17,663 bases of DNA from positions 1-17,663 of the forward strand of contig JBGTLG010000001.1 in the NCBI GenBank assembly GCA_041744215.1. Direction: 5' to 3'. The stretch's first letter is position 1. Each line of letters begins with the position of its first letter. Source of the DNA: Fimbriimonadales bacterium (lineage in GTDB: Bacteria > Armatimonadota > Fimbriimonadia > Fimbriimonadales > ATM1). Positions 1 through 17,663 of the stretch are shown in pieces. The notes below the pieces were generated by a model that had not been told where the DNA came from, did no database searches, and was given only the letters and a program-made list of their open reading frames with translations. Both the position numbers and the translations under genes were made by a program.

Positions 1-235
1 CTCCGTTCGCGATTCTTCCGGGCGGGCCTTGTACTCGACCCGCGCTCGCCGCCAGTCCCACTCCCATCTCTATTTTGCTTTGCACCCGTTGGTTGAGACC
101 AAACAGTTTCAAAAACATTTCTTGCGTTCTCGTTTCCGAAATTCGCAAATCGAAAACAACAAAAGAAAACTGTACAAAAGAAAACAACAACACGGTTCCC
201 AAGCGACGTTTTCCACAGACAAGTCGCCCTTGTGA

Positions 236-406
236 ATGAATTGGCCGATCCCAAAGGAGAAGCACATCCGGCGGTTTCAGGACTTGTACGTGCGCCGTTT
301 TAATGCGACGCTTACGCCGCAAGAAGCGTTCGATGCGCTTACTGCCCTAACTCACATTTATTATGCCAAACACATTGCGTTACGCCATCTACGCCCGCAA
401 GAGTAG
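236..406 (+). CDS. Small hypothetical protein (56 aa) overlapping the recombinase start
   Basis: Translated by hand (below the ORF-track cutoff): ATG 236 to TAG 406, MNWPIPKEKHIRRFQDLYVRRFNATLTPQEAFDALTALTHIYYAKHIALRHLRPQE. Its 'IxxFxxLYxxxFxxxLTxxEA' pattern resembles small helical proteins I recall next to this type of LSR (unverified). Confidence 0.55.
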   Translation: MNWPIPKEKHIRRFQDLYVRRFNATLTPQEAFDALTALTHIYYAKHIALRHLRPQE

Positions 407-2006
407 CGAGGAAGATGAACGGCAAGCCGAGAGTCTTCCCGGCCAGGTCAATGCCCTGAAAGGCTTTGCTGCCGAGCGGGGCATTGAGATCATCGAGGTG
501 CTGGAAGAGGCCCGCTCCGCCAAGGAACCAAGCACCCGCCCAGTCTTTGCGAGCCTTATCGAAAAGCTCAAAGCGGGCCAGGTTGACGGGATACTCTGCT
601 GGAGTATCGACAGGCTCTCGCGAAATCCGGTCGATTCCGGCCTCATCAGTTGGCTGTTACAGCAAGAAATCATTATGTCGATCCGGACGATGACCCGCGA
701 GTACGTGCCCGAAGACAACGCCGTCATCATGGCGGTAGAAACGAGCGTCGCCAATCAATACATCCGTGACCTCAGCCGCAACGTCAAGCGGGGCATGTCG
801 CGCAAGGCCGAACAGGGTTGGTGGCCCGGCCTTGCGCCGCCGGGGTATCGCAATGACAAGGAAACCAGAACCATCGCCATTGACAAGCCGCGTTTCGAGA
901 TGCTACGACGGGCGTGGGAAATGTTGCTCTGCGGAAACTACTCAGCCAGTTATGTTCTCCAAGAACTGAACCGATGGGGTTTTACCGTCGAGGGCAGGCA
1001 CGAAAGAACGAAGCCGCTTTGTCGGTCTGCCTTTTACAGGCTTCTGTCCAATCCGTTTTACACCGGTGAGTTCATGTACAAAAGCGAAATTCGCAAAGGC
1101 AATCACCAGCCGATGGTAAGCCGCTACGAGTTCGATCTTGTTCAGCAGCTGCTCGGGCGGCCGACCCGGCTGCGGTCCGTCAAATCCTGCTTTGCCTACT
1201 CGGGCCTTATTCGGTGCGGCGCGTGCGGCTGCCTCATCACCGCCGAGCGCAAGACGAAGGTCTATCGGCGAACAGAGCGTATCCGCAGCTACATCTACTA
1301 CCACTGCACCGGTGCGAAGGGTTGCAGGCGAGAAGGTGTGACAGAGAGCTACCTTGACCAACAAATCGGCGCACTACTCCAATCGTGTAGCCTTCAGGCA
1401 GAGGTTGCAGAGATCATCCGGGAAGTGATCGACGATTGCCTCACAGCGGAGATCCGATTAGGACAGACATTGGAACCGAACCGGCAAGGAAATCTCCGGC
1501 AACAGCATGTGCGTTTAGAGGCGCTGTTGGAGATGCGCCTGGCAGGTGAGCTATCGGCAGATGAATACGTCGCTGAGAAGAACCGGCAGCTTACTGCTAT
1601 TCGCAATCTCGAAGGGTCGCTGCGCCGGTGCAGAGAACTTTCGGATCGGCTGAAAGAAGAGTTTCGCCAGTCCGTTTTGGCCGTGACCGACATATCGGCG
1701 CGTTTCGCAATAGCGCCGCCGGAAGAAAAGCGAATGACGGCGAATGCGCTAGCACACGCCTACTTTCTCACTCTGGGATCGTTTCAGTACCGGTTGCATC
1801 CGATTATTGAGCTGTTCTGCACTTTCGAACTCGCGAAAAAGTCCAGACAACAGGTAGAGAGCGAGCTGGCTGTGCCCGACTGTCGCTTTCGGTGGGCCGT
1901 TCGGAACGTAATACGCACTCTGATGACAGGTCACGACAACTGTTTCGAGGAGTCAACGAAATTTGCAACCGACGACAAGTTGCCAAAGACTGGGATCAAC
2001 CGATGA
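363..2006 (+). CDS. Large serine recombinase / integrase (resolvase catalytic domain, recombinase domain, Zn ribbon, coiled coil)
   Basis: YARKS with catalytic Ser14, DRLSRN motif, APPGY...LLSNPFYTG recombinase domain, H-x-P-x-V-S motif (HQPMVS), CGACG...YYHC...C zinc ribbon, coiled-coil C-terminal region; 547 aa. Confidence 0.95.
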   Translation: MPNTLRYAIYARKSSEEDERQAESLPGQVNALKGFAAERGIEIIEVLEEARSAKEPSTRPVFASLIEKLKAGQVDGILCWSIDRLSRNPVDSGLISWLLQQEIIMSIRTMTREYVPEDNAVIMAVETSVANQYIRDLSRNVKRGMSRKAEQGWWPGLAPPGYRNDKETRTIAIDKPRFEMLRRAWEMLLCGNYSASYVLQELNRWGFTVEGRHERTKPLCRSAFYRLLSNPFYTGEFMYKSEIRKGNHQPMVSRYEFDLVQQLLGRPTRLRSVKSCFAYSGLIRCGACGCLITAERKTKVYRRTERIRSYIYYHCTGAKGCRREGVTESYLDQQIGALLQSCSLQAEVAEIIREVIDDCLTAEIRLGQTLEPNRQGNLRQQHVRLEALLEMRLAGELSADEYVAEKNRQLTAIRNLEGSLRRCRELSDRLKEEFRQSVLAVTDISARFAIAPPEEKRMTANALAHAYFLTLGSFQYRLHPIIELFCTFELAKKSRQQVESELAVPDCRFRWAVRNVIRTLMTGHDNCFEESTKFATDDKLPKTGINR

Positions 2007-2062
2007 AGGATCCGGGAGCAATTGAGAAGTTCAAGAAGGACTACTTTCGCCCATACCGGCAC
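1891..2062 (+). repeat. Direct repeat copy 1: LSR 3' end plus downstream sequence (putative att-containing junction J1)
   Basis: Manual alignment with 3337-3507 gives about 21 differences over ~172 nt (~88%). Starts GGTGGGCCGTTCGGAACGTAATACGCACTCTG and contains the palindrome CGTTC-G-GAACG. Confidence 0.95.
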
Positions 2063-2071
2063 CATGGTTAA
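2003..2071 (+). CDS. Possible 22-aa peptide coupled to the LSR stop by an ATGA overlap
   Basis: MKDPGAIEKFKKDYFRPYRHHG*. The equivalent ORF in repeat copy 2 is cut short by AAG>TAA. Confidence 0.2.
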   Translation: MKDPGAIEKFKKDYFRPYRHHG

Positions 2072-2138
2072 ATCTGCGCCCATTCGGGCTGGATTCTCGT
2101 CCTTTCGGTGTAGGAGTGCCCCAGACCAGGGAGGAGGC

Positions 2139-2168
2139 TTGACGGACCCGGTGCTTGTGGGATAGAAT
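2139..2168 (+). promoter_or_regulatory. Putative sigma70 promoter P1
   Basis: TTGACG (2139-2144), 18-nt spacer, TAGAAT (2163-2168), upstream of ORF 2246. Confidence 0.5.
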
Positions 2169-2195
2169 CTGTAGCCTTCTCGGGGCCGTTGGGCG

Positions 2196-2224
2196 TTGAC
2201 AATGTATGCTCCGCCGGCTAGCTT
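2196..2224 (+). promoter_or_regulatory. Putative sigma70 promoter P2
   Basis: Consensus TTGACA (2196-2201), 17-nt spacer, TAGCTT (2219-2224). RBS AGAGGTG precedes GTG 2246. Confidence 0.5.
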
Positions 2225-2245
2225 GGTCCTAAGAGGTGACACCAA

Positions 2246-2482
2246 GTGACCACGAAATTCATCAAGAACCTGAATAAATTTGTTGAGAGAGCAACCAAGA
2301 CAAAGATCGAAGTCATTGATAGAGAAACTATCGAGGAAGCTCGTCGGCGCGTCGAAAGAGAGTATGGAAAACCCATGGCTATCTCTACTCGCCGAAATCT
2401 AATAGGTCGAGGCAACACCAATTCGTCCAAGCTTGTTCAACGCTCAGAGCTAGAACGGGATCTGGATAGGTGCTTGAGATAG
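2246..2482 (+). CDS. Small basic hypothetical protein (78 aa)
   Basis: GTG start with RBS AAGAGGTGA, upstream promoter motifs and a downstream hairpin; charged, helical-looking sequence. Confidence 0.75.
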   Translation: MTTKFIKNLNKFVERATKTKIEVIDRETIEEARRRVEREYGKPMAISTRRNLIGRGNTNSSKLVQRSELERDLDRCLR

Positions 2483-2504
2483 GAAGTTCACGACCATCGC
2501 CTTA

Positions 2505-2532
2505 AGGCACCACTATCAGTGGTGCCTATTTT
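2505..2532 (+). terminator. Stem-loop / intrinsic terminator-like element between two genes
   Basis: AGGCACCACT-ATC-AGTGGTGCCT (perfect 10-bp stem) followed by ATTTT. Confidence 0.65.
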
Positions 2533-2539
2533 CTAAGCC

Positions 2540-3157
2540 ATGGATGACAAGCTACCTAATGATAAGGGCGGTGTTCCCCAGACACTAAAGGAACTCTTCC
2601 AGTTTTACCACGACGTAGTGAAGAGACTTTACAGCGTCGTTCAAGCGGAAAACTCACTGCCGGTTGAAATACTCTTCGAGCTTCACGCTGCCTTTGACCA
2701 CGTAACGAGAATATACACCTTCCATGAGCGCGAGGCCGATGCGGTAGCTAAGGCCTATTCGCACCTAAAGCGTTCCTGTCTCGATGTTTATAAGATTTAT
2801 CTCAGAGACACATTGGATATGTTCGAAGAGCTGCGCCGAATCGAAACACATTACATCGACAACGGGGAGTTCGATTTCAAACTTCGGCAGTTAGTCGCCG
2901 ATATTCGACGTAAGGCTCGTCACGCCCGCAGCGTGGAGGGAGATAAGCGCGAGGATATCGATGGTAAGATTCAGGCATTCGACCTCTGGCAAGAGGTCGC
3001 AGACGACTGCCAAAGGCTTAGAGAAAGTTTTTACTACTGCCCACACGTGGCGTGGGCAAAGAAGAAAGGTTTTTGGAACGCCGTTAAGTACATTGTAGTC
3101 GGAATAATTGCTAGCCTGATTGCGGCGGCTATCTGGCAATGGTGCGCCAGCCTCTAA
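2540..3157 (+). CDS. Hypothetical helical protein with C-terminal transmembrane anchor (205 aa)
   Basis: Clean ORF with the pattern E-x2-AAFDH-x2-R...KAYSHLKRSCLD and a hydrophobic tail YIVVGIIASLIAAAIW after KKK. Confidence 0.85.
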   Translation: MDDKLPNDKGGVPQTLKELFQFYHDVVKRLYSVVQAENSLPVEILFELHAAFDHVTRIYTFHEREADAVAKAYSHLKRSCLDVYKIYLRDTLDMFEELRRIETHYIDNGEFDFKLRQLVADIRRKARHARSVEGDKREDIDGKIQAFDLWQEVADDCQRLRESFYYCPHVAWAKKKGFWNAVKYIVVGIIASLIAAAIWQWCASL

Positions 3158-3336
3158 AGGAGCCCACTGCCCAAGGTGAGCGGAGGCTCAAATCCGGCAG
3201 TGGAAACCGGCAACTGTTTCTCGCAACGCATTATAGTTTGCAAGCCTCTCAATCTTAAGAGAAGGTTTAACGCACAGTTAGATCAAACTGAGTTTCCCTC
3301 GTTAGTGAATTGGGACGGGGGTAGTGTGTCCCGAAT

Positions 3337-3507
3337 GGCGGGCCGTTCGGAACGTCATACGCACTCTGATGACAGGTTACGACAACTGTTTGAAGGAGTC
3401 AACGAAATTTGCAGCCGACGACGAGTTGCCAAAGACTGTACTGAACCGATGAAGTATCGGGGAGCAATTGAGCAGTTCAAGTAAGATTACTTCGCCTAGA
3501 CTGGCAC
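3337..3507 (+). repeat. Direct repeat copy 2 (orphan LSR C-terminal tail; junction J2)
   Basis: From 3336 it reads WRAVRNVIRTLMTGYDNCLKESTKFAADDELPKTVLNR*, against the LSR tail RWAVRNVIRTLMTGHDNCFEESTKFATDDKLPKTGINR*. The frame is closed upstream by TGA at 3306-3308. Confidence 0.95.
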
Positions 3508-3586
3508 ACGAGCGAAGCTGTGGTCTGCTCCCCAAATCTGACGACGGAAAGGAGCGAATCGTTGTTGACGAGCAGGTGGCTCCCCT

Positions 3587-3712
3587 TGGCGGGCCCGGCG
3601 TGAACGCATTCGCACTCTGCTATCAGATAAGGACATTGAACAATGGAGTTGCGCGGACTGCTCGTTTCTTGACAGCACTGAATTAGGCGCTGACGATGGG
3701 AATGCGGCATGA
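3587..3712 (+). repeat. Diverged third LSR-tail / att-like junction J3
   Basis: TGGCGGGCC-N15-CGCACTCTG with the same spacing as J1/J2. Translates WRARRERIRTLLSD..., stays open for 41 codons and ends in TGA overlapping the ATG of ORF 3709. Confidence 0.7.
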
Positions 3713-4059
3713 AGAAAGACTCGGGACTAAGTGAGTGTTTCCAGCTCATCTCCACTATGGGCAAGCACGCGATGTGGGAGAAAAAGGCCAATGGCGAAGC
3801 AATGCATCAAGCACCGCTCGGCTACAAGAATGCTCGCCAAGACGGCCGATCGGTCATCGTTTCAGACCCGGCTACCTTCCATCTAGTGGAAAGAGCTCGT
3901 TTGCTGCGGGGTCAGGGCTGCACTTTGAAGGAGATATGTCGGCTAATGAAGAAGATGGGACTTCGATCAAGAAGAGGCAAGGTCATCACCGCCTCTGGGA
4001 TGGACAGGATTCTCAAGCGGCCTCGTCCTTTTGTTCAGACAACATCCAATACCTGCTGA
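3709..4059 (+). CDS. Stand-alone recombinase DNA-binding-domain protein with no catalytic domain (116 aa); possibly an LSR remnant
   Basis: KHAMWEKKANGEAMHQAPLGYKN...IVSDP...GCTLKEICRLMKKMGLRSRRGKVITASGMDRILKRP aligns by eye with LSR KRGMSRKAEQGWWPGLAPPGYRN...IAIDK...SAFYRLLSNP. Confidence 0.8.
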   Translation: MKKDSGLSECFQLISTMGKHAMWEKKANGEAMHQAPLGYKNARQDGRSVIVSDPATFHLVERARLLRGQGCTLKEICRLMKKMGLRSRRGKVITASGMDRILKRPRPFVQTTSNTC

Positions 4060-4990
4060 CAAGTTAGCTGCTCTGCTTCGAGCACGAAACGAGCGGACTC
4101 GAAGTTCGAACGACAGTGGGCGCTTAATTGGGGTAACGTCACCCCAACCCGAGCGAGGGCGAGTGGCGTTGATTGAGCGAAAGCCCGCTGACGATGAAGT
4201 GACGAAGTACGTTGCGACTGCAGCCAGGACAGCGGCAGCAGTCCTGTCGATACTTGCTTCTACGAGTGCGGTTGCGACAATTATTCTCTTTCTTTTTCAG
4301 CAGCCGTTGATTGCAGGCGCCTGCTTGCTCGCTGCGGTTGTTTTCACTGCTTGGCGCCTCATCCACATTTATAGAAGGAGGAAGAACGCGGCTGTGCAAC
4401 GTGTGTTCGCTGTAAGCACCGCTTGCAAATACCTGGCTGAACGAGCAACTTGGCTACTAACATCAACCCCCGAGGAAGGCAGGGCCGCGCTGACATATCT
4501 GCTCTACGCATTTCAGGCAATTCACGATTGCGATCCAAGAAGCCCGGACTACGGTTGGCAGGTAGCACTATGGGCTCCCAATGGCCCCAAATGTCTCCGA
4601 ATCATTGCTTCGGTCAACGTAGGAAGGACTACGGAGAACCGGTATCTCATGGGAGATGGCTCGGCACCGGGTACCATTGACGGTCTAGTATGGAAGGCCT
4701 GGATCGAGAAGCAAGATCTTCACTCAACGGATGCGCAGAGCGATGATCGCGTCGATACGAAGGAGCATAAGAAACACCAGAATCCCGAGCGTCGGTCGTC
4801 AATCGGCTCGATTTTCTGCAAGCTGGTGTGTCTCGATGAGCGCTCGGTCGGCGTCATTTCCATCAACAACCGACAAACAGGACTTTTCTTCGAGGATGAA
4901 GCAGACGCCAGAGCCGCAATCGCTGGGCTTGTTGCAATATGCATGAAGCTGACCGATAATGTAACAAGCTCAAGCGAGGTTAGTACATGA
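4031..4990 (+). CDS. Two-TM membrane protein with C-terminal GAF-like domain (true start may be downstream)
   Basis: Two hydrophobic segments (AAVLSILASTSAVATIILFLF; LIAGACLLAAVVFTAW), then GAF-like motifs GLVWKAW...SIGSIFCKLV...VGVISINNRQTGLF. Confidence 0.75.
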   Translation: MFRQHPIPADKLAALLRARNERTRSSNDSGRLIGVTSPQPERGRVALIERKPADDEVTKYVATAARTAAAVLSILASTSAVATIILFLFQQPLIAGACLLAAVVFTAWRLIHIYRRRKNAAVQRVFAVSTACKYLAERATWLLTSTPEEGRAALTYLLYAFQAIHDCDPRSPDYGWQVALWAPNGPKCLRIIASVNVGRTTENRYLMGDGSAPGTIDGLVWKAWIEKQDLHSTDAQSDDRVDTKEHKKHQNPERRSSIGSIFCKLVCLDERSVGVISINNRQTGLFFEDEADARAAIAGLVAICMKLTDNVTSSSEVST

Positions 4991-5205
4991 ACAGAGCATC
5001 AATGGAATCAACAGACAAAGATTTCTACGCCTATACACAAGGCGAGATCTCTCCAGACGAGCTGTACCACCGGTGGAAGGAAAAGCATCAGGTCGGCTTG
5101 TTCCGCTACTTCTGCCTCGAGACGATCGCTGACTTCAGGGCGATTTGGGGCGCAATCCTCGGCATATTCACTTCTCGAAGCAATCAATCCTCACGGCACC
5201 CGTAA
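4987..5205 (+). CDS. Small hypothetical protein (72 aa)
   Basis: ATGA overlap with the upstream gene, RBS GAGGT, and a hairpin over the stop codon. Confidence 0.7.
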   Translation: MNRASMESTDKDFYAYTQGEISPDELYHRWKEKHQVGLFRYFCLETIADFRAIWGAILGIFTSRSNQSSRHP

Positions 5206-5220
5206 CACGGGTGCCGTTTC
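5193..5220 (+). terminator. Stem-loop / terminator-like element
   Basis: ACGGCACCCGT-AAC-ACGGGTGCCGT (perfect 11-bp stem) followed by TTC; the U-tract is weak. Confidence 0.6.
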
Positions 5221-5445
5221 TCGTCAACAAGTACTTTCATGGTCTGAACCTACGATTGGGCGCGGTAGATCACACGAGTAGTGTTAAGTGCCCTCTGATG
5301 ATTAGTTGGCTCTATGGTTGAGAGAAATTCTCCTTTGGTGGGCCTGGTCAATGACCCGCTTGTAGGTTCCTGATTCGGATCATTCCAGGCAACGCGGGAG
5401 CCTCTCGTTTAGGAACCAGCGTAGGAACCATGGTGGCACGCGAAC

Positions 5446-8010
5446 CTAGGGTTGACCCTGCACTTGAACGGCGAGTCGCGCTCGCACGTCGGCGTAGATA
5501 TCAATTCCAGAGCCGACCCCAACTTCAAAACTGACTGCGATTGCATATGGAATGGTCTCATCAAGCTCACCGGCTTGAGCCAGGCAATCGACTGCAATTT
5601 CGGCTGTCGCTCCATTCGCAACCAGAACATTGCTTGAGCCATCGAAGCGGGCATGAAACACGGTGCCTTTGCCTCTAGAATGATCGTCCGGCTGGTTCGT
5701 GTTACTTCCATCCATGCCTGCAATATGGGGCAGCCGTGCAACAAGCTTTGCCATTCGATAGAGTTGATGACTCGGGTTGACTGGCGTGAACCAGGCGATT
5801 GTCACGGTCATCGAGCGATAGCCGATGTTTCCTCCCAACGTCTGGGGCACGGGAATCCTGAACAGGTGGCCTTGATCTGGTCCGATGAAGCCATGACCGA
5901 GCATGATTGCATGCTGATCAGTACAACCAGGCTCGAAGTCGCGAGGGATGCATCCAAACGTCAGGAACCGAGCAATGTCGCGCTTTAGAGCTGCTGATGA
6001 CTGGCCATTCTGGAAGAGTGTCTCTAGTCGGCCATATGTGGCTGGATTCACCCTGCTGTGATGCACAAGCAGTGCCTTGGCATAGAGCGGCCAAAACTGG
6101 GGCTCAGGATCGCCGAGCGCGTCCGAATCCAGCACTGCCTCGATCAGCTGGTGGGCGGTTCGCGTGGCCAGAGCTGCCGCTACGCTCGTGCCATAGATAT
6201 TAGATCGCTGATCTAGTCGGCCCTGTTGATCGGGTGCGGCTGCCGAGATGCCTGCAAAGCGACCCGGCGACAGTACCGGCTCAAGTCGAAGCGGCTGTGC
6301 CGCTCGGGACCGCAAAAGCGTTCTGCCTCCACCAAGTAAAAGTTCAGGTTTGATAGAACTTCGAAATCCTAGTCCAAGGCCGGAGATTACTGTTGGCAGT
6401 TCCGCCGAAACATACGGGTCAACGAGGTGCGCATGCAGACCACCTTCCGCTACGCTGTCACTGTGAGAAGAGCCTACTGTGAGGGCGTTCACAGACTCTG
6501 AAGGCGACAAGATGGCCCGGTCGCTAGCCATCGAACTTAAGGCCACGACGCACGCGATTTCTCGGTCGCTTTCGGTCGCACCTTGGAGATCGGTTATTGC
6601 GCCGTAAGCAGGTAATTCAAAGCTTCCCGTCACATTGCCTGCACTGACCACGAACAACACGCCATAACGCCATGCGAGGTAGTCAATCAACCTTGCCCAT
6701 GGACTCATGCGCCTCGAAAATGGCCTGCTACTGTCTCCAAGTGAGAGATTGATGATCTTGACCGTGGGGGCACTGGCCGGAGCATTACCCTCTCCCTCAA
6801 ACATCCGGCGAACAGCGCTATACATGTAGTCGACAAGGAGAATCTCCGGTGGAAAGTGCTCGTGAGATTGAGCATCTTCGCAGCACATGACTGGCCGCAC
6901 GTAGAGGCGCGACGATATAGGGGGAGCTCCGGCCAAGAGATCTCCATGGATGATCAGAGACGCCATCTCTGTGCCATGGCGACGAGACGCGACAGTTGCA
7001 TACCGCTGTTCGAGGCCGTCTGGATCGTCAATCGCCATCCGACCCTGAAGCAGCACGTGATTCTGGATGGGGACGCCATCAATAAGAGCCACAAGTGGAT
7101 CGCCAAGTTCACCAACCGCTTCCGGGATCGGTGAATCGTCAAGATCTTCTTCGTCGGGTGTCGTGATCGAGGCAGCGCTTTGAGGACGCACAAACATGAC
7201 ACCATCGGCGTTCAAGAGTGCAATGTCGCCTAGGTCAATCAAGGCTTGAACGGCCGCTCTCGGAAGACGTGCGAGTATTGCCGCGTATCGAATCTCGCCT
7301 ATTAAGGAAGTAAACAGCACCTGTCCGCCAGATGCCTGTACCGACTCGGTGACACTTTGAAATCTTCGCACATTTACGTCACCGCTGTCGCTGTACCAAA
7401 GCTCGACTTCAGCCTGGACCACTTGATCGCCAACCGATCCCAAGAGCTCGGCGAAGAAGGCCTGATCTTGAGGATTGATCCGGTCCCGCGCACCCCATGG
7501 CCGAACATCAATCAAGTGCTCAAAAAGGTCTCGCCACTTGGCAAATCCGCGGGGAAACGCTTCATTCCTCTTGAACCGATTCCAAAGGGTGACAAGCTCT
7601 CGGAGCGAAGTCTCATTGGGCATCACTAAGTAGAAGTGGGCCGGAACTGGTTTCTCGGGCCGCTCTCTGCCATCGTGGCCGATGACCACAAATCCTGTAG
7701 CGTCGGTTTCCTCTCCCTCTTCCTCGAAGAGGAACTCCAAGCCGATCTGTCGGGCTTTTTCGGCAAAAGTGGGAATTCCGCTTCCGGCTACCTCAAACAC
7801 GATTGCCCGTTCCGGGGCCAGGCTCGTTGGGTCGTCCCTCAACTCGCTTACGCGGCCTTCCGCGATGAGTTGCTCGATAAGTTCAAAGCTGCCGCCGAAT
7901 CGTTCAGTCTGTTGCTGGCGACCTGGCCTGTGGAGTCTTGCGCCACCGCCGCGCCTCCTAGCTCTGTCTTGGACGCTTGGGTTTGGGATCGGAAGATATG
8001 GTTGTTGCAC
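5446..8010 (-). CDS. ietS: S8 family (subtilisin-like) serine peptidase, IetS-like
   Basis: Catalytic motifs VALIDG (Asp), HGTEMAS (His), NLSLG, SAGN (oxyanion Asn), KPEL and GTSVAAA (Ser); long N-terminal extension; directly downstream of an AAA+ ATPase. Confidence 0.9.
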   Translation of the reverse strand: MQQPYLPIPNPSVQDRARRRGGGARLHRPGRQQQTERFGGSFELIEQLIAEGRVSELRDDPTSLAPERAIVFEVAGSGIPTFAEKARQIGLEFLFEEEGEETDATGFVVIGHDGRERPEKPVPAHFYLVMPNETSLRELVTLWNRFKRNEAFPRGFAKWRDLFEHLIDVRPWGARDRINPQDQAFFAELLGSVGDQVVQAEVELWYSDSGDVNVRRFQSVTESVQASGGQVLFTSLIGEIRYAAILARLPRAAVQALIDLGDIALLNADGVMFVRPQSAASITTPDEEDLDDSPIPEAVGELGDPLVALIDGVPIQNHVLLQGRMAIDDPDGLEQRYATVASRRHGTEMASLIIHGDLLAGAPPISSRLYVRPVMCCEDAQSHEHFPPEILLVDYMYSAVRRMFEGEGNAPASAPTVKIINLSLGDSSRPFSRRMSPWARLIDYLAWRYGVLFVVSAGNVTGSFELPAYGAITDLQGATESDREIACVVALSSMASDRAILSPSESVNALTVGSSHSDSVAEGGLHAHLVDPYVSAELPTVISGLGLGFRSSIKPELLLGGGRTLLRSRAAQPLRLEPVLSPGRFAGISAAAPDQQGRLDQRSNIYGTSVAAALATRTAHQLIEAVLDSDALGDPEPQFWPLYAKALLVHHSRVNPATYGRLETLFQNGQSSAALKRDIARFLTFGCIPRDFEPGCTDQHAIMLGHGFIGPDQGHLFRIPVPQTLGGNIGYRSMTVTIAWFTPVNPSHQLYRMAKLVARLPHIAGMDGSNTNQPDDHSRGKGTVFHARFDGSSNVLVANGATAEIAVDCLAQAGELDETIPYAIAVSFEVGVGSGIDIYADVRARLAVQVQGQP

Positions 8011-9019
8011 GTTGTCCTTGTTTCCTTGCCTTGTCAGTTCCTGCGCGCATCATCCGCCAGTCGGCAAGAACAGACGCAAGGGCGCCTTCTGGTGTGGTTT
8101 CGCCGAGAGACAAAACAAGCTTCCTTCGGAGGTTCAGGCAGAACTGCTCAAGTTCTGAGAATGTCGTAGAACCGAGGGACTTCGCTAGAGCCGTTGAGGT
8201 CATTTTGAGCAAGGGTTGCAGGTCTTGGAGATAGATCTTCAAATAGCTCGTCACCTGGATCTGCGTGGGTGGTGGGAGTTCCAATCTCAGCTCGAATCTC
8301 CGCCATGCTGCTCGGTCAAGCAGCTCCTCATGATTAGTGGCTGCGATCACTGTTGTATAGCTGGGCAAGTCGTCGATCTGTAGAAGCAAACTGGTTACGA
8401 CCCGCTTGATTTCTCCGGTCTCGTGGATGTCGCCACGCTCCTTCCCCAAGGCGTCGAACTCGTCGAAAAACAGGACGCAAGGGGTCGTTCGCGCATAGTC
8501 GAAGACACGGCGCAATCGGCTAGCTGTCTCCCCCAGAAAGCTACCGATGATAGCGTCATACCGAACTACGAAGAACGGAACGCTGAGGGACTCTGCGATC
8601 GCCTCGGCAAGCGATGTCTTCCCATTGCCTGGTGGACCCACAAGCAGTATTCGATGTCTCGGCTCCAATGAGTGCGCCCGAAGCAGGTCGGCACGAAGTT
8701 GCTCTTCGATGATTTGGCTCACAAGCCGCTGGCAATCAGTTCCCAGGATTAAATCCGAAAGTCGCCGGCGGGGAATGAACTCCATGACCAAGTCTCGCGC
8801 CTTGCCGTTTGGGTCTGACTGAGCCGGCCGAGGCTGCGCTGACCCGTTGCCGTTGAGATCCGGCTGTGCGTTGAGGGCTTTTGAAAGTCGGTCTGCCAAC
8901 ACGTTGTGTTGCTTGGCCCGTTCTTCGGCGATGAGTGTTTCAGCGACTGTTCGCACTGCTTGCTTGTCACCTGCTGAACTGGCCTTCACCAGGGACACGA
9001 GAAGATCACTTCGCGACAT
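7958..9019 (-). CDS. ietA: AAA+ ATPase, IetA-like
   Basis: Walker A GPPGNGKT, Walker B LFFDEFD, GEIKRVV, second region of homology AATNHEELLDRAAWRRFE; overlaps the S8 gene by 53 nt. Confidence 0.92.
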   Translation of the reverse strand: MSRSDLLVSLVKASSAGDKQAVRTVAETLIAEERAKQHNVLADRLSKALNAQPDLNGNGSAQPRPAQSDPNGKARDLVMEFIPRRRLSDLILGTDCQRLVSQIIEEQLRADLLRAHSLEPRHRILLVGPPGNGKTSLAEAIAESLSVPFFVVRYDAIIGSFLGETASRLRRVFDYARTTPCVLFFDEFDALGKERGDIHETGEIKRVVTSLLLQIDDLPSYTTVIAATNHEELLDRAAWRRFELRLELPPPTQIQVTSYLKIYLQDLQPLLKMTSTALAKSLGSTTFSELEQFCLNLRRKLVLSLGETTPEGALASVLADWRMMRAGTDKARKQGQRATTISSDPKPKRPRQS

Positions 9020-9439: not shown

Positions 9440-10012
9440 CTAACTGCGGATCCAATCGCCTAGGCCGTTGTGATTCGCCGCATCGATCGTTTGGCACCGA
9501 ATGTCTCCGTCAGTGCTAGTCATCATGATTCCAGAATAGTTTGGAAGGCCGGGCCAATGGGGATGCGAGTGGTTTTTTACAAATGACTTCGTCTCGTAGA
9601 GGAAGCTGCCGTTGACAAAGGCAATTGTTGCGATGCCCTTCTCGGCAGCGTAATCAAGTGCACCAGACTGAAAGCCGCACGTGGCGAAAATCATGCCCTT
9701 ATGCGCTTTGATCGCGTCCAATTTTGCCCATAGGGTTAACAACGTATCTCGCTTGACTGGCCCAGAGTAGCGCTTACACTCTACGGCGATTCGGATACGT
9801 GCGCCTTGGAGGAGTTGGAACTCAGCGACCGCATCCAGCTCGTAGTCGCCGCCTGTGCCGCTAAGATGGCTCAAGTGCTCAATCGTGAAGCTCTCGAGTT
9901 TGTCTCCGCCCGCCTTCAACCACTTCACCACCTGAAGCTCGTACTGCGTCGGTGTGATATCGGCAGGTACTAGAGGATTCCACGGTGAATCCGGGTTTCG
10001 CTTTGGATTCAT
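9440..10012 (-). CDS. Mrr-like PD-(D/E)xK restriction endonuclease domain protein (190 aa)
   Basis: TPTQYE...YELDAVA...IAVECKRY...KGMIFATCGFQSGALDYA matches the Mrr catalytic-domain pattern. Confidence 0.85.
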   Translation of the reverse strand: MNPKRNPDSPWNPLVPADITPTQYELQVVKWLKAGGDKLESFTIEHLSHLSGTGGDYELDAVAEFQLLQGARIRIAVECKRYSGPVKRDTLLTLWAKLDAIKAHKGMIFATCGFQSGALDYAAEKGIATIAFVNGSFLYETKSFVKNHSHPHWPGLPNYSGIMMTSTDGDIRCQTIDAANHNGLGDWIRS

Positions 10013-11292: not shown

Positions 11293-12306
11293 ATGGATTC
11301 AGTTTGCACTCTCAGCGACCTCCAGCAATCGATCGCCCAAGACGATAACGGCAAATGGGACAAGGTCGTCCCGACGAAGAACCTCTGCCTCAGAGAGGGC
11401 CGCCTCGACTTTCATGGCGAGAGTCCGGCCAGCGAGACCTCGCTCAGCCTCACCCCGTGGTCGAGAAGCCAACTCTGCAACCTGCTCGGCATTCCCAGTG
11501 CCTACTTCGGCAACTGCCCGCCCGAGCTGCAGGACAGGCAATTCAACTACTGGCTAGGCCGGCTAGTCGAACATCGAAGCGAAGATTCCAACGGCGAACT
11601 GCCGCACGAATCGAAAGCGAGCAAGCTCTTGCTTCGGGGCAAGGGCGAGACGCTAAGAGCGGCGCTCAGCACCCGCTACAACCGCTTCGACAACAAAGAC
11701 ATTGTTGAGCATCTGACGCCGTATCTTTCGGAAGGTTGGGAAACGACCTGGTACGCTTTCGACCAAGACATTCTCCATCTGCGCCTGACCCGTCCAGCCA
11801 CCATGCGAGAGATTCGCACAGGGGATTTCGTTGTCGGCGGTATGCATGTGATCAATAGCGAGGTTGGCCGCTCAGCGATCACGATCCGCGCAGTTCTGTA
11901 TCGGCTGGTTTGCACCAACGGCCTCATCTGTCCGGTCGGTGAAAGGGAACTGCTTCGGAAACGGCATGTCTTCACCGTCGGCCACCAGTTCCGCACCGAA
12001 CTCTCCGAAGCCGTCGAAACGGCGATCGCGCAAGCCGAATCCGGCCTCAATGTGATGCAGGAATCGACGAGGTTCGATATCGGCAACGTCGCCGAAGAAA
12101 TCGACGAACTCGAGGCGCGCTACCCGCTGCCCGGCTCCTACCTCAAGGAGATCAGGGAGATGGCCGATATCAGCCCAAGTTCGTGGACTTCGCTCTACGA
12201 CCTGACCAACCTTCTGACCCTTGCTGCCCAGCGGCTGCCGCCGACCCAAAGGGTTGAAACGGAAGCTGTGGCCGGCGACTTCATGCTCTCACGGCTCGGG
12301 CGTTAG
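11293..12306 (+). CDS. DUF932-family protein
   Basis: LRAALSTRYNRFDN and INSEVGRSAITIRAVLYRLVCTNGLI...RKRH motifs; RBS AAGGAG at 11281; downstream terminator. Confidence 0.88.
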   Translation: MDSVCTLSDLQQSIAQDDNGKWDKVVPTKNLCLREGRLDFHGESPASETSLSLTPWSRSQLCNLLGIPSAYFGNCPPELQDRQFNYWLGRLVEHRSEDSNGELPHESKASKLLLRGKGETLRAALSTRYNRFDNKDIVEHLTPYLSEGWETTWYAFDQDILHLRLTRPATMREIRTGDFVVGGMHVINSEVGRSAITIRAVLYRLVCTNGLICPVGERELLRKRHVFTVGHQFRTELSEAVETAIAQAESGLNVMQESTRFDIGNVAEEIDELEARYPLPGSYLKEIREMADISPSSWTSLYDLTNLLTLAAQRLPPTQRVETEAVAGDFMLSRLGR

Positions 12307-12316
12307 CCCAATACCC

Positions 12317-12342
12317 AAACCGGTCCCCAGGGACCGGTTTTT
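12317..12342 (+). terminator. Intrinsic terminator (possibly bidirectional)
   Basis: AAACCGGTCC-CCAG-GGACCGGTTTTT between convergent genes. Confidence 0.85.
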
Positions 12343-12410
12343 GCCGACTGCAAAGCCTTCTGAACAGATATTCGTCGCCGGCGACCGAATAGTCGACGAG
12401 TCAGCCCCGC

Positions 12411-13439
12411 TTACCGCTGGGGTGGTAGAACCTTGGACCACTTGTTTAGTGCCCGACCCCTCTGAGCCTTCGAGGGGTGAAACTTCCATAAATTTGGCTC
12501 ATCGTCAGAATGAAATCGCTCGATATACTCCCGAACCGGATCCTCTCCTACAACAAGTGCAGCAACTCCATCGGCGAGGTACTCAGCCTCAAATCGAAAC
12601 CCCCTCCCAATCAAAAAGAGTCCAAGTATTACAAGAACTGAAATGCCCGAATGCAGCTGCGACAGTCGCATCTTTCTCCCGTGATCGTCACGTTTAACAG
12701 CTATCTCCTCTTCGAACCCTCTCCGTGCCGCTATTGGGTCACTTACCTGCTCACGTAGGAGCATCTCCAATTCACTGCGCTGGGCATCAACGCCCAGTTC
12801 AAACTGACTGTTACCTATGAAGGGAAGCAGCAGTGCCGTTACCACTGCAAGTGGCAGCATCAGCCTGAGCATCCATACGGCTATCGCATGCGTCTGAATA
12901 ATCTTGGTGGCGTTCCCTGTTGTGCAGTGCGCAAGCTCATGAGCAAGCATCGCCTCTGCTACTGATCGATTCTCGCTCGTAAGACGAAGAAAGCCGAGGG
13001 GAATAATAATGTCACAGCCCTTCCTTGTCGGGATCGCTGCCGGGCTCATCCCAAGGTCTTCTCGATTTACAAGGAGATTGATGTCTCGAGTCTTGGGGAA
13101 CAACTCACGGAAGCGACTGACCAGATTGGAGAGCATCGGGGCTAATGATCCCTCGGTGAACGGTGAAAGTCTCTCACCGTTCCCTTTGAGTTGCCTGCGA
13201 GTATAGATCGAAGCAAATGTGATGATCCCGAGAAACACACAGAATGTCGTGGCGTACCCTATGCGGCCAAACACATCGAGTCCAGGGTCAAATACAGCCA
13301 GTCCATAGACGATGGCACCTACCAATTGCCAAAGGACGAAGACTCGAAAAACCCCCATTCTGAACGCAAGGCTTTTAGAACGCTTCGAAACATTCCTTCT
13401 AATGATGCGGATGTTCTGCTGGTTGCTGTCAACCGCCAT
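12411..13439 (-). CDS. M48-family (HtpX/Ste24-like) membrane zinc metalloprotease
   Basis: AMLAHELAH (HExxH), EAEYLADG third ligand, FHPS...R C-terminal motif and several TM segments. Confidence 0.85.
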   Translation of the reverse strand: MAVDSNQQNIRIIRRNVSKRSKSLAFRMGVFRVFVLWQLVGAIVYGLAVFDPGLDVFGRIGYATTFCVFLGIITFASIYTRRQLKGNGERLSPFTEGSLAPMLSNLVSRFRELFPKTRDINLLVNREDLGMSPAAIPTRKGCDIIIPLGFLRLTSENRSVAEAMLAHELAHCTTGNATKIIQTHAIAVWMLRLMLPLAVVTALLLPFIGNSQFELGVDAQRSELEMLLREQVSDPIAARRGFEEEIAVKRDDHGRKMRLSQLHSGISVLVILGLFLIGRGFRFEAEYLADGVAALVVGEDPVREYIERFHSDDEPNLWKFHPSKAQRGRALNKWSKVLPPQR

Positions 13440-13887
13440 TAGCCACGGACACCCTTTCAGCGAGCCGCTCCACCAAGCAAGTCAATCGATCCAAGTGATC
13501 ACTGATCAGCCGTTCGGACTTGTCGTCCTCAATCATCGACTTGAGACTCTGCCGTAGCAGATCCTCTGCCTTTGCACGCGAATTCGCTTCGACATTGGAT
13601 TTCTTGACTTTTATCAACTCGGAGGCTGTCTGAACAATGGCGACCACGAGAGGAACGAAAGCGATCATCATCGTGCCCGCGTGCTCAGGCACACACTCCA
13701 GACCCGTTCGGCGTTTATGTTGCGTCTGGGAACCCGCGCAAATCCTTCGAATCCAGAACTCTCCACCCTCTTCCCATGCCAACAGTTCAGCCGGGTCGAG
13801 AGTGTCGACTACTGGCGTCAGGGCATCCTTCATTTCGATTACTGCCAAATCGTCTATTGGCAAACACGATCCATCGTTGATCTTCAT
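13429..13887 (-). CDS. Hypothetical protein (152 aa) with one hydrophobic helix, coupled to the M48 gene
   Basis: Overlaps the M48 start by 11 nt; hydrophobic stretch MMIAFVPLVVAIV followed by a charged helical tail. Confidence 0.7.
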   Translation of the reverse strand: MKINDGSCLPIDDLAVIEMKDALTPVVDTLDPAELLAWEEGGEFWIRRICAGSQTQHKRRTGLECVPEHAGTMMIAFVPLVVAIVQTASELIKVKKSNVEANSRAKAEDLLRQSLKSMIEDDKSERLISDHLDRLTCLVERLAERVSVANGG

Positions 13888-14007
13888 ATTCTTCCCACTA
13901 TCTCGGAGATCTCATATCGCGAAGTTCTGAATGACAGACAGGCGGGGCTGGCCCTCACGAGTCCCGACCTGAAGGCACAAAGTTTGATCCAATTCATCGC
14001 GGATGTC

Positions 14008-15912
14008 TCACTCCTTCGGAGTCACCCTCATCACCGTCGGTGGCTTTGGCTCAACAGGGACGAAATGCGCTGGTCCTGGCCACAAGGAAGCTGAGCGTTG
14101 AAGCTCTCGCAGCACTTTGCCCGAATCTGCTATCCACCCAGCGTCCATCGCATACGGATACCTCCGTTTGTCTCCCTGTGGGTACAGCACTGAATCGGCG
14201 GACCTGGTGAGCAGAGTGCTGAGATCAGCATCCCCCGTATTCCGATCATGGAAGGTGGGCTTCAAATTCGCTTCCATATTACTCATGAGCACGAGGAATC
14301 GCACCCACCGGTGCTGTTCGAAATCAAAACCCAGAAATGCCTTTCCGGCAAGTTCTCCGCGATCAAGCAACTCATCAACCATTTCCTTCGGCATGTCGAG
14401 ATTGAGTCCTCCCTCCTTGGGGCGAAGCGGCAAAAACACGATCCGTTCTCGATATCCGGGAAGTCGAGATTGCATGGTATCGCGAAAATTCTGGGCGGAA
14501 CTAAATATCGCCCCCAAGAAGCCCAACGTTGATCTGATCGGTTTGGACAATTCGGCGATGTGCGCGTCCGCACGGTGCATAAATGGTCGGATGACTTCGG
14601 ATGGCCCTTCCTCTTGCGAAACCTGTCTTGGTTGCACGTCTACCAACTGGATGCCAAATGTCGGCCGGGAAGGAATCCAGTTATCGAAGAAGTGGATCGG
14701 AAAGTTGCTTGAGATGCCTCCGTCGCTGAATAACGAAATCGACAGTTCTTCTCGAGGCCGCTTGATGGGGACAGAACTACCGTCCTTCGTATTGCCGCGA
14801 AAGGCAGGAAAGCTGTACAGTCTCACTGCGCTTATCAATAATGGAAAGCTCAAGCTCATGCGCGCGGCGACGACTACGGGCAGCTCTTCGGATGGCAGCG
14901 GATGCCAGCCGTCGGGTAGTGAACGCACTGGTGGTGTCCTATTAGCTGAGGCCATCGCTACCACCACCTCACGCGGAAACAGCCGATTCATGTCTTCTTC
15001 TGCGAAAACATACTCGTCGGTCTCGAGGGGCAATCGGTAGGGACGTTCCCGTGAGACGTTTGTTGTCATCATGGCAAGTTCGATGCCCTCTTCTTGCAGC
15101 CGGCTGAAGTTAAGAAGTTCACTCTCCTCCTCTCCGAATGCGACGTACTGGATCGCCCATGTGAGCCAATCGGTCAACACGCCGTCCTCGGACGCGTGCG
15201 CGCCTGGTTCGTGCCCGAAGCAGATTCCGAATTCAGTCTGATTTGGGAGAGTTCGACTAACTATTCTCAGTATCGCCCAGAGCCCGCCGATCGCACCACC
15301 CAAGAGTGCGAAGATAATGAAAGGAATGACGCCGGCAGGAGAGAAGAGTGAAAGATTCAGAGTTTCGCGCCACGAGGAGCCTGGTGGCGAGAGTGCGTAC
15401 GTCTGGAGCCAAGCGAACAGAATCCATAAGCCAATGCCAAGAATTGTTCCCACCAACGTCGGGCCGGTCGCCCAGCGCCACAGCGTGCCGTAGACGCGCG
15501 CCATGCGAAGTAGCAAGGGCCCCTGAGCGGCTGCCTTTCGAATCACTTCCAGAAGCGCGGCAGTACGCCTGTCCGGCTTAAATCTCTTGAGAATTTCGCC
15601 CGGTTCCGACAACGCCTTACCAACCTCGACCAACCTGGAGAAGCACGGGTGGAGCCCGTTCATAGGCCTGGCGGTCGGATTCCGCTGACGCCCGTATTCG
15701 GCAGCTGCCGTGAGTGCAGCAGCAATTGCGCCAGCGGACGTTCCTCCGATCGATGCGAACCTATATTTCTTGGAGAGCTCTGCGATAGCAGTTGGGTAGA
15801 CGATTCCGCTCGCAATGCCGCCCTTCATTATCAGATCGCACTGCGGGAGTTGGCTTGCGTCGATCGCTTGCCCCTCGGCTACTTGGCCAGGATTCGATTC
15901 GCGTTCACCCAC
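14008..15912 (-). CDS. Patatin-like phospholipase with an internal two-TM insertion (634 aa)
   Basis: KGGIASG oxyanion loop, GTSAG nucleophile elbow, ARMSLSFP and SDGGISSNFP (DGG); two hydrophobic segments lie between the catalytic motifs. Confidence 0.92.
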   Translation of the reverse strand: MGERESNPGQVAEGQAIDASQLPQCDLIMKGGIASGIVYPTAIAELSKKYRFASIGGTSAGAIAAALTAAAEYGRQRNPTARPMNGLHPCFSRLVEVGKALSEPGEILKRFKPDRRTAALLEVIRKAAAQGPLLLRMARVYGTLWRWATGPTLVGTILGIGLWILFAWLQTYALSPPGSSWRETLNLSLFSPAGVIPFIIFALLGGAIGGLWAILRIVSRTLPNQTEFGICFGHEPGAHASEDGVLTDWLTWAIQYVAFGEEESELLNFSRLQEEGIELAMMTTNVSRERPYRLPLETDEYVFAEEDMNRLFPREVVVAMASANRTPPVRSLPDGWHPLPSEELPVVVAARMSLSFPLLISAVRLYSFPAFRGNTKDGSSVPIKRPREELSISLFSDGGISSNFPIHFFDNWIPSRPTFGIQLVDVQPRQVSQEEGPSEVIRPFMHRADAHIAELSKPIRSTLGFLGAIFSSAQNFRDTMQSRLPGYRERIVFLPLRPKEGGLNLDMPKEMVDELLDRGELAGKAFLGFDFEQHRWVRFLVLMSNMEANLKPTFHDRNTGDADLSTLLTRSADSVLYPQGDKRRYPYAMDAGWIADSGKVLRELQRSASLWPGPAHFVPVEPKPPTVMRVTPKE

Positions 15913-16603: not shown

Positions 16604-17663
16604 CTACCCACTTGAGTAAGCACCCGTCCACCAGTCATGGCCTTCGTACATCAGCTTCCAAATCCTCGGCTGAACGTCGAAGAACGGGAAGCCAAGGGCT
16701 TCGGCAAACTCCGCTTGAAACTCCTTACTCGCGAAGTACCGCCAAAAAGCGATGCCAGGAAGGCCCAAGTATTCTGATTCGTCGTGAATGGCGATGCAGA
16801 TGCCGTCGCCGTACTCAATCTCACCGAGCGATCCGCTGTCAACCCAAAGCTGCCAAGCGCGATACTCTTGCGCCGGATCGTTGGCAAATGTCAACTTTCC
16901 AACAGGAAACGCGGAGTAGTCCACATCCTCAGGATCGGGCGGATTGCCCCCCGTTGGTATGATGTTCCATCTCGTCTTCCAAGAAACGCCGCCTTCTGAG
17001 GAATTGATATTCTCGTCGTCGTAAAGCGGCCAGTAGGCGCCGAAGATCACCTGCGCCGGCGGTTCGTGCGATGCCGGATGGCCCATGTAGAAGAGGCTAA
17101 GGCAGGACCTGTCGTTATCGGTCGTCATGCCGTTGTCTCCGTATAGTTGGATTCTAGCCACACCGCTTCGGTCCATCGTCAGCCACTGCATGTATCCCAC
17201 GAAAAGCCCGCCGCGGTACTTCCAGTTTCCAAAGCGGTAAAAGCCTACATCGACGTTGGGATCGGGGTCCTCGTCCGGCCAGATGATGCCGTCGAAAACG
17301 CCGTTGCCGTCGTAGAACCCCAGCCTCGAATCGATCGAGGCGTCGCCAGAGAGCAAGTGCTTTTGAAGGTCAAACTCGACCAGTTCCGACATCTCGTACT
17401 GAATCCATTGCTCCGACTGTTCGTCGTAAACCTGGTAGCGACGGTAGCAAAGGAGAAACACTGTCCCACCATCTAGAACGGTTTCGTTGTCTGCCGCCAC
17501 ATGGAGTCTCGCTGTGCCGCTAGTGGTCAGTTTGCATCCGATAAAGTAGGCGGTCTCAGGATTCATTCCGGATTCGATGGCATAGAGGCCCCTGCCTTTT
17601 CCGGTCATCTCCCAAGCGACCCCAACGTCGTCGAATTCTTCGCTCTCCATGATCCCGACCCAG
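16604..17663 (-). CDS. Acidic, aromatic-rich hypothetical protein, probably 5'-truncated by the window edge
   Basis: 348 aa from ATG 17650, but the frame stays open to the window end (W-V-G-I-M...) and no clear RBS precedes that ATG. Confidence 0.75.
   Translation of the reverse strand, partial: WVGIMESEEFDDVGVAWEMTGKGRGLYAIESGMNPETAYFIGCKLTTSGTARLHVAADNETVLDGGTVFLLCYRRYQVYDEQSEQWIQYEMSELVEFDLQKHLLSGDASIDSRLGFYDGNGVFDGIIWPDEDPDPNVDVGFYRFGNWKYRGGLFVGYMQWLTMDRSGVARIQLYGDNGMTTDNDRSCLSLFYMGHPASHEPPAQVIFGAYWPLYDDENINSSEGGVSWKTRWNIIPTGGNPPDPEDVDYSAFPVGKLTFANDPAQEYRAWQLWVDSGSLGEIEYGDGICIAIHDESEYLGLPGIAFWRYFASKEFQAEFAEALGFPFFDVQPRIWKLMYEGHDWWTGAYSSG

Follow-up and report, generated by a model that had tools for sequence, protein, structure and literature searches.

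Recombinase-less insertions at a candidate crossover site within a large serine recombinase gene of Armatimonadota

A contig of a Fimbriimonadales bacterium (phylum Armatimonadota; GenBank assembly GCA_041744215.1, contig JBGTLG010000001.1) carries near its start the gene of a large serine recombinase (LSR), and the 3' coding end of this gene recurs, in whole or in part, at two places further downstream. The stretch analysed here, called the window, is the whole of that contig (C1, 17,663 bp), from a genome of 42 contigs and 2.68 Mb in which a second, paralogous LSR locus lies on contig C12. An earlier note, made from the letters of the window, had described three interchangeable in-frame C-terminal tails for the recombinase and proposed that recombination at their junctions could act as a switch of protein tail and expression. 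The junctions share a short core, here called J. By comparing the window with its paralogue, with related loci across the phylum and with a control set of distant LSRs, we come to the view that J is, on balance, the crossover site of this clade of LSRs, placed inside the recombinase's own reading frame, and that cassettes without a recombinase have been inserted at it.

The recombinase gene and its three junctions

The features of the recombinase region, all on the + strand, are as follows.

363..2006, +: LSR gene, 547 amino acids (aa), with the Pfam domains Resolvase, Recombinase and Zn_ribbon_recom
1888..1939, +: J1 core, a recombination-site candidate inside the LSR open reading frame (ORF), found with nhmmer; the direct repeat starts here and identity to the C12 locus jumps here
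1890..2006, +: tail 1, in use, 38 codons (1890-2003) and stop (2004-2006)
1891..3336, +: segment 1, 1446 bp, equal to the repeat spacing of 1446, with tail 1, a 78-aa ORF (2246-2482) and a 205-aa ORF (2540-3157)
2003..2071, +: 22-aa ORF with an ATG that overlaps the stop of the LSR; it may be what remains of a mini-gene start
3335..3385, +: J2 core, silent, found with nhmmer and as a direct repeat
3336..3452, +: tail 2, silent, 38 codons (3336-3449) and stop (3450-3452)
3449-3484, +: 11-aa ORF after tail 2
3586..3635, +: J3 core, silent and divergent, found with nhmmer (E 4.2e-11) and by alignment
3587..3712, +: tail 3, silent, 41 codons (3587-3709) and stop (3710-3712), overlapping the ATG of the mini gene
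3709..4059, +: mini gene, 116 aa, with the C-terminal half of LSR helix alpha-E and the recombinase domain, without the catalytic or zinc-ribbon domain

The protein is an LSR by its architecture: a resolvase catalytic domain (PF00239, E 2.5e-21) with the nucleophile serine and the conserved arginines precedes a Recombinase domain and then a zinc ribbon with an inserted coiled coil, PF07508 and PF13408 being matched as well. Among 31 relatives R12 is invariant and S14 nearly so, and the sequence matches the SPbeta and A118 integrases. The AlphaFold2 (AF2) model, with a mean predicted local distance difference test score (pLDDT) of 84.8, has strands at residues 283-314, long helices at 346-442 and a return hairpin at 464-478; the zinc-ribbon domain is predicted to close at about residue 487, and beyond it follow a disordered linker (493-505), a helix (506-521) that contains Trp511 and is encoded by the J core, and a disordered end (524-547, pLDDT <50). 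As modelled, then, the last folded domain of the LSR ends before J.

All three tails are open in the LSR frame for the 38, 38 and 41 codons that the earlier note had given, and each stop is, as it had also said, the TGA of an ATGAAG in which the stop overlaps an ATG. Upstream of J2 the frame closes after 9 codons and upstream of J3 after 6, and because of this tails 2 and 3 are silent and not parts of genes. The tails do not stay open more often than chance, which the note had asked to be tested: open runs of 38 and 41 codons are found at 36% and 34% of all starting points on the + strand, and the signal is one of homology, not of openness of the frame. J1 and J2 begin a direct repeat (1891-2046 against 3337-3492, 89%; alternatively 1891-2062 against 3337-3507, 87.8% over 172 nt), and J3 has in common with them only a core of about 35-50 nt. 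When the J1 region was compared by BLAST with the 2.68 Mb genome, it found only J2 (89%) and the tail of the second LSR on C12 (94%); a J profile run with nhmmer gave four genome sites at E <= 4e-11, with the next best at E = 1.2, the profile having been built from these four sites, which match by construction.

The 12 core codons differ between the tails by one synonymous change. Beyond them, J1 differs from J2 by 7 non-synonymous and 0 synonymous changes, and from the C12 copy by 5 and 0; the tail beyond the core looks unconstrained. The 22-aa ORF may be a mini-gene remnant, as its longer C12 version (44 aa) aligns weakly to the matching positions of the mini profile (hhalign probability 15.7%). 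The 205-aa protein of segment 1 has a hydrophobic C-terminus and a weak PHROG match of unknown function. No tRNA gene and no Rfam family was found at J. A scan of a genome contig collection with the exact J-core DNA pattern returned 0 matches; a 30-nt match of 90% in genome G074 was dropped, as the ORF that contains it is unrelated and, over 201 genomes, such a match is close to what chance would give.

Tails exchanged between related recombinases

The LSR on C12 has 56% protein identity to that of the window, and the last 153 nt of its gene have 94% DNA identity to tail 1. Without gaps, the two sequences agree at 36/60 positions before J, and then at 59/60 and 55/60 after it. Two diverged LSRs thus end in one near-identical tail, and therefore this tail is a recently exchanged module, with the break at the junction that the earlier note had marked. 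(In reverse-complement coordinates of C12, the LSR lies at 524-2167 and a remnant of a recombinase domain's end at about 3229-3452.)

Seven close pairs of loci were aligned for breaks of synteny, and two of them capture occupied and empty states. Loci L222 and L223, from one genus and with DNA of 82% identity, run collinear as far as the Trp motif; from there L222 has a single J and then a tail (B), while L223 has J, a different tail (A), 3.2 kb of other DNA, a second J, a tail of the first kind (B'), and the downstream genes shared by the two. An equivalent pattern with an insert of 5.1 kb separates L220 from L219, which are two loci of one genome (85%). The inserts in L223 and L219 hold a mini gene and cargo and no LSR, the cargo of L219 being a 1390-aa KAP NTPase. 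Insertions exactly at J have given related LSRs different tails, and the sharp homology break that the earlier note had asked for at its W-x6-IRT motif is found, at W-x6-IR, in all three comparisons (window with C12, L222 with L223, L220 with L219). In L220 (G524:C3) the second Trp codon of the J core is TGA; the LSR stops inside its own site, and the homology continues.

Beyond the last J, both L222 and L223 carry Fic, HTH_17, Replic_Relax and coupling-protein genes. Since genes of an element lie on both sides of J, J is inside a larger mobile element and not at its end.

The older state of the window can be read from genome G133, of the same order. Its LSR has a working tail that equals tail 3 in length, in the final residues and in the ATGA coupling to an orthologue of the mini gene, and 3.3 kb beyond, J, tail and mini start are present once more. 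Because this matching arrangement is intact in G133, tail 3 and the mini gene are an old, genuine LSR end, and in the window about 1.7 kb now separates the LSR body from it.

Distribution and symmetry of the site

An LSR of this clade (E <= 1e-60) is present in 46 of 401 sampled Armatimonadota genomes. From these 49 loci were fetched, which with C1 and C12 gave 48 LSR matches; one second match of 22% identity was dropped, leaving 47 loci. For each, the last 300 nt of the LSR gene and the following 100 nt were compared by BLAST with the locus itself. This gave 20 copies of the LSR's 3' coding end that lie downstream in direct orientation, in 18/47 loci, and the pair comparison added a 19th locus (L219), so that 19/47 carry an extra J copy; the sole inverted coding-end copy among the 47 loci is a 23-nt match in L233. 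The left boundaries of 16/20 copies fall between -14 and -2 nt from the conserved Trp column, a span of 13 nt. The extra copies are often common over 27-81 nt only and then diverge, and being short and bounded in this way they show J to be a discrete site of about 28-60 bp.

The control set consisted of distant LSRs (<=43% identity, mostly Patescibacteria, with tails that cannot be aligned) taken from protein scans of genome and metagenome contigs. Of its 160 loci 111 were testable, the others running off the contig, having <1.5 kb downstream or holding N; a direct downstream repeat starting in the coding end was found in 4/111, from 3 different elements.

The site also has two-fold symmetry across the family. 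Over 45 LSR-linked sites the symmetry peaks at 0.42 over 14 pairs, with its centre in the codon of the Trp column (shuffle maximum 0.33), and over 21 silent sites, whose left flanks are unrelated, it peaks at 0.40 at the same centre (shuffle maximum 0.35). It extends over 14 nt to either side, beyond which only background is left, and it beats re-dealt arms 500 times in 500 for the linked and 490 in 500 for the silent sites. The centre of symmetry falls on the boundary of homology, as expected if strands are exchanged there. Within the window, 26 nt at J2 (3328-3353) form an imperfect palindrome of 8 pairs that is not significant alone (z -1.14); in an exact-seed search for inverted repeats and in single-strand folding, the three J sites of the window were not significant and folded no better than shuffles.

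The mini gene

The product of the mini gene is matched by phrog_95 (integrase) and, at 17.6 bits, by Pfam Recombinase, under the cut-off of 21.1. In profile-profile comparison it corresponds to LSR residues of about 130-274 (probability 99.9), and its AF2 model (pLDDT 85.5) has LSR structures in all of its best 20 Foldseek rows, at weak E-values (best E 2.5e-3, template modelling score <=0.71). The inserts at J usually carry such a gene. A database search gave 88 relatives, most of them consisting of this domain only (about 100-235 aa) and named at most 'recombinase family protein'. Within the survey, all 25 mini-like matches (18 loci) lie downstream of an LSR and point in its direction, a mini gene lies within 900 nt of the LSR stop in 12/47 loci, and mini genes occur in 15/19 loci with extra J copies versus 3/28 without.

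Other genes of the window

Two further features, both on the + strand, precede the LSR gene.

3..239, +: 3' end of an upstream ORF, cut by the start of the contig and assigned by synteny only
236..406, +: small ORF of 56 aa from the ORF list, just 5' of the LSR, whose start it overlaps

The first 394 nt of the window have 87% identity to the paralogous C12 locus. In G040 and G133 a gene for a Phage_rep_O protein stands at the position that matches ORF 3..239, for which a PHROGs search gave no match, and an ORF of 79-82 aa occupies the place of the 56-aa ORF, for which neither Pfam nor PHROGs gave a family; ArdC and Mrr genes accompany the Phage_rep_O gene 5' of the LSR in both genomes. Promoter and terminator scans of window positions 1-5400 gave nothing above shuffles.

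Further downstream lies, on the - strand, an IetA/IetS defence pair (5446-9019), with an 854-aa S8 protease matching IetS (E 1.7e-266) and a 353-aa AAA ATPase matching IetA (E 1.9e-140), followed by an Mrr-like nuclease at 9440-10012 and by genes of element type at 11293-15912 (DUF932, phrog_1362; an M48 peptidase; a 634-aa patatin-like protein). The window's last 141 nt (17523-17663) recur without change at the ends of contigs C36 and C14 and, with 98% identity, in the interior of C8, and mark an assembly branch at a repeat.

How the locus may have been built

We propose that small segments without a recombinase have been inserted at J, in one orientation, by conservative site-specific recombination, and that such segments would usually begin with DNA that closes the ORF and with a mini gene. 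At each insertion the LSR would receive the incoming tail, and the earlier J with its tail would be pushed downstream as a silent copy. In the window, the segments J1-J2 (1446 bp) and J2-J3 (about 250 bp) would have arrived later than tail 3 and the mini gene, and tail 1 is the module that the C12 LSR also uses. The exchange of tails may be a by-product that keeps the ORF closed, much as the 3' end of a target gene is restored by the island inserted in it, and excision between two J copies would restore an older tail and couple the LSR once more to the mini gene. The sequences themselves show the sites with their boundaries and symmetry, the occupied and empty states found in nature, and the differing tails of related LSRs. 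That the LSR is the enzyme, that J recombines with J and that the mini protein has any part in it is what we infer.

Several observations weigh against this proposal. LSRs are known to recombine unlike sites, attP with attB, in one direction, and the reverse reaction takes a directionality factor; the J copies resemble each other, and recombination of J with J would be unusual for such enzymes. The sites are related by descent, so that the symmetry statistics overstate their independence, and the window's own three sites are, taken alone, not significantly palindromic. Of the left boundaries, 4/20 lie elsewhere, at +16, +20, +30 and -113 nt. As many as 28/47 loci have a single J and keep the motif without cassettes, and the motif may have its use in the protein and not in the DNA. 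The enzyme acting at J could be a different recombinase. Moreover, the contigs of three runs of one study (X1-X3) contain no J1-J2, J1-J3 or J2-J3 joint, contigs being prone to drop rare variants; those of X2 and X3 have coverage gaps at low depth. (A listed joint of 249 to 1894 and a loose end at 2046 in the run contigs were rejected as the C12 paralogue mapping on its conserved ends.)

Three genomes add to these difficulties. In G006, which has the closest LSR (57%), the gene adjoins a module of the window's type, with the 78-aa and 205-aa proteins, in inverted orientation, and a search of the whole genome gave no second J. In G040 two J copies of 66 nt, identical to each other, are in direct orientation and a third lies inverted 21 kb downstream, and G367 has two direct J copies 13 kb apart that lie 2.9 Mb from its clade LSR. 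From these cases it follows that J also occurs away from the gene and that inversions happen; one-way stacking is therefore not the whole story.

Some particulars of these loci may be recorded. The G006 module, from a different genus, corresponds to L218 6723-7621 in LSR orientation, its two proteins having 65% and 75% aa identity to those of the window. The inverted J of G040 (G040:C1 2732842-2732906) has about 160 nt of tail in common with the second direct copy, and 20.6 kb separate the converging J-tail units. The copies of G367 lie at G367:C1 7125304-7125402 and 7138369-7138426; one of them is 92% identical to the tail and downstream flank of the clade LSR, and nearby there is only a distant LSR on the other strand.

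A bolder form of the proposal, which we put forward tentatively, would make the locus a platform for gene capture, with J in the recombinase's own ORF, cargo of defence type, and a cassette-borne mini protein, a non-catalytic version of the enzyme's DNA-binding domain, that binds J half-sites and decides whether a cassette is kept, excised or inverted, each capture rewriting both the tail and the translation of what follows; this would be an analogue of the integron in which the cassette encodes a factor of specificity or directionality.

The earlier note's own interpretation, a switch of tail and expression, is in part borne out; as a working switch in the hands of the cell or the element, deletion and re-insertion between J copies would alter the tail of the LSR and its coupling to the mini gene, and hence the recombinase's activity, stability or directionality. 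Recombination at the motif does exchange tails in nature, as the related LSRs testify, and an in-register deletion between J1 and J3 would join the LSR to tail 3 and the mini gene through ATGA, the state that is intact in G133; the idea of re-coupling is reasonable. Each of the three tails is in frame and has ATGA at its end, overlap of the LSR with the next gene is common in relatives, the mini gene is often close behind the stop (the 12/47 loci above), and its product is the LSR's own DNA-binding module, whose level could affect recombination. There are precedents as well: on integration of phage Mx8 the integrase gets a new 3' end and an altered specificity (PMC6070905), and in phage BPs immunity depends on integration (PMC4557955). 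A working switch of the protein is nevertheless unlikely on present evidence. The codons past the core have changed 7:0 and 5:0 in favour of non-synonymous changes, residues 524-547 are modelled with pLDDT <50, the frames are open at chance level, and the contigs of the three runs hold no alternative joint. In relatives, silent tails have 24, 12, 28, 29, 28, 73, 13 and 84 codons and working tails 46, 30, 28, 40, 53 and 26; 5/10 silent tails differ greatly in length from the working one; a frameshift affects one tail, and another has lost its stop.

We give a similarly small chance to a scheme like that of Mx8, in which J would be the attP of a whole element and the extra copies would stem from tandem integrations whose recombinase genes were later deleted. 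The site does lie inside a recombinase ORF, as in Mx8 (PMC6070905), and genes of a backbone flank it (Phage_rep_O, Mrr and ArdC upstream; Fic, HTH_17, Replic_Relax and the coupling protein downstream, in L222). In a locus from Elusimicrobia (L091), moreover, the LSR 3' coding end is repeated in direct orientation 5 kb upstream, as expected if the site of a whole element lay in the recombinase gene. Yet J is unbroken within the gene in chromosomal loci, and searches of the whole genomes of G040, G006, G278 and G046 gave no upstream direct copy, though short or diverged copies could be missed. Furthermore, the inserts, of 0.25-6 kb, lack the LSR core and have both ends within a few nt of J, a pattern that random deletion is unlikely to repeat. 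Finally, that no site-specific process was at work, the copies being decayed LSR 3' fragments or products of duplication or gene conversion and the motif being conserved for the protein only, is very improbable, for while relic recombinase fragments do occur (as on C12), loci that lack repeats keep the Trp helix as well, and the raised identity of window and C12 at the 5' end as well (87% over 394 nt) suggests homologous exchange, this would leave unexplained the 13-nt span of 16/20 boundaries across 18 loci, copies that are short and bounded on both sides, silent copies whose left flanks, unrelated to the LSR, keep the complementary half-site, and the low frequency of the feature in the control clade (4/111 loci).

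Insertion of cassettes at J, which we favour, would matter in several ways. LSRs are prized for genome engineering and their natural sites are hard to find, and a site in the enzyme's own gene would make site prediction trivial and testable. A stand-alone recombinase-domain protein that travels with the inserts is a candidate for an accessory or directionality factor of a new kind. The locus would also represent a further way in which serine recombinases stack small cargo, defence genes (IetAS, KAP NTPases) among it, in a little-studied phylum, and would show how an enzyme can tolerate the rewriting of its C-terminus at each event. Small serine recombinases linked to defence genes, KAP NTPases among them, have been described (PMC13552941).

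Comparison with known systems

Among the literature covered, by titles and the starts of abstracts, there was no LSR with a docking site in its own ORF, no domain-only partners travelling with inserts, and no LSR cassette arrays describing the present arrangement. The locus resembles an integron in having a recombinase gene and, adjacent to it and in the same orientation, recombinase-less cassettes of varied cargo. Integrons are built on the tyrosine recombinase IntI and on attC sites that fold as single strands, with attI outside the gene; here the only recombinase beside the array is of the serine type, and IntI with attC is not what is found. The arrays are also short (2-3 J copies), and the cassettes carry a mini gene and probably promoters of their own.

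In the G segment of Mu (Gin), in Hin, Cin and Pin systems and in shufflons, site-specific inversion swaps the C-terminal ends of tail-fibre or pilin genes, with function in either state. The repeats described here are direct (with one inverted, in G040), the gene concerned is that of the recombinase itself, and the tails look neutral.

The IntP/IntX system of Mx8 shares with J a site inside the integrase's coding sequence and a recombination that provides a new 3' end (PMC6070905). It differs in that Mx8 uses a tyrosine integrase and the whole phage integrates, whereas here a serine recombinase keeps its ORF unbroken and small cassettes are inserted; the site is within the recombinase ORF, and integration of a whole element that splits the ORF is not seen in G040, G006, G278 or G046.

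Closer parallels are found among serine recombinases. The ssrA islands of Dehalococcoides (DsiB, CcrB-like) stand in tandem, with direct repeats that copy the 3' end of a gene as their borders, and 15 of them lack an integration module and are read as cis-mobilizable elements joined by accretion (PMC3146451). Like the window, they have a second, smaller recombinase-family gene beside the large one, although their target is ssrA with a 20-bp repeat, and DsiA has a catalytic domain and no DNA-binding domain, the reverse of the mini protein, which is the DNA-binding part only (PMC3146451).

In the staphylococcal cassette chromosome (SCC, SCCmec), whose recombinases CcrAB and CcrC are LSRs, direct copies of a short site at the 3' end of a gene keep its frame, and recombinase-less modules are stacked between them (PMC7029739). 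The window with J1, J2 and J3, the 19/47 related loci and the inserts without an LSR likewise show multiple copies of one site. The docking gene there is orfX/rlmH of the host, and here it is the gene of the recombinase; SCC repeats have about 15 bp, compared with J cores of about 28-66 bp, the Ccr proteins being compared by description only. We know of no stand-alone recombinase-domain gene in SCC. By analogy, the best reading of the locus would be that of cassettes piled up at a site inside the recombinase gene, in the manner of SCC composite islands.

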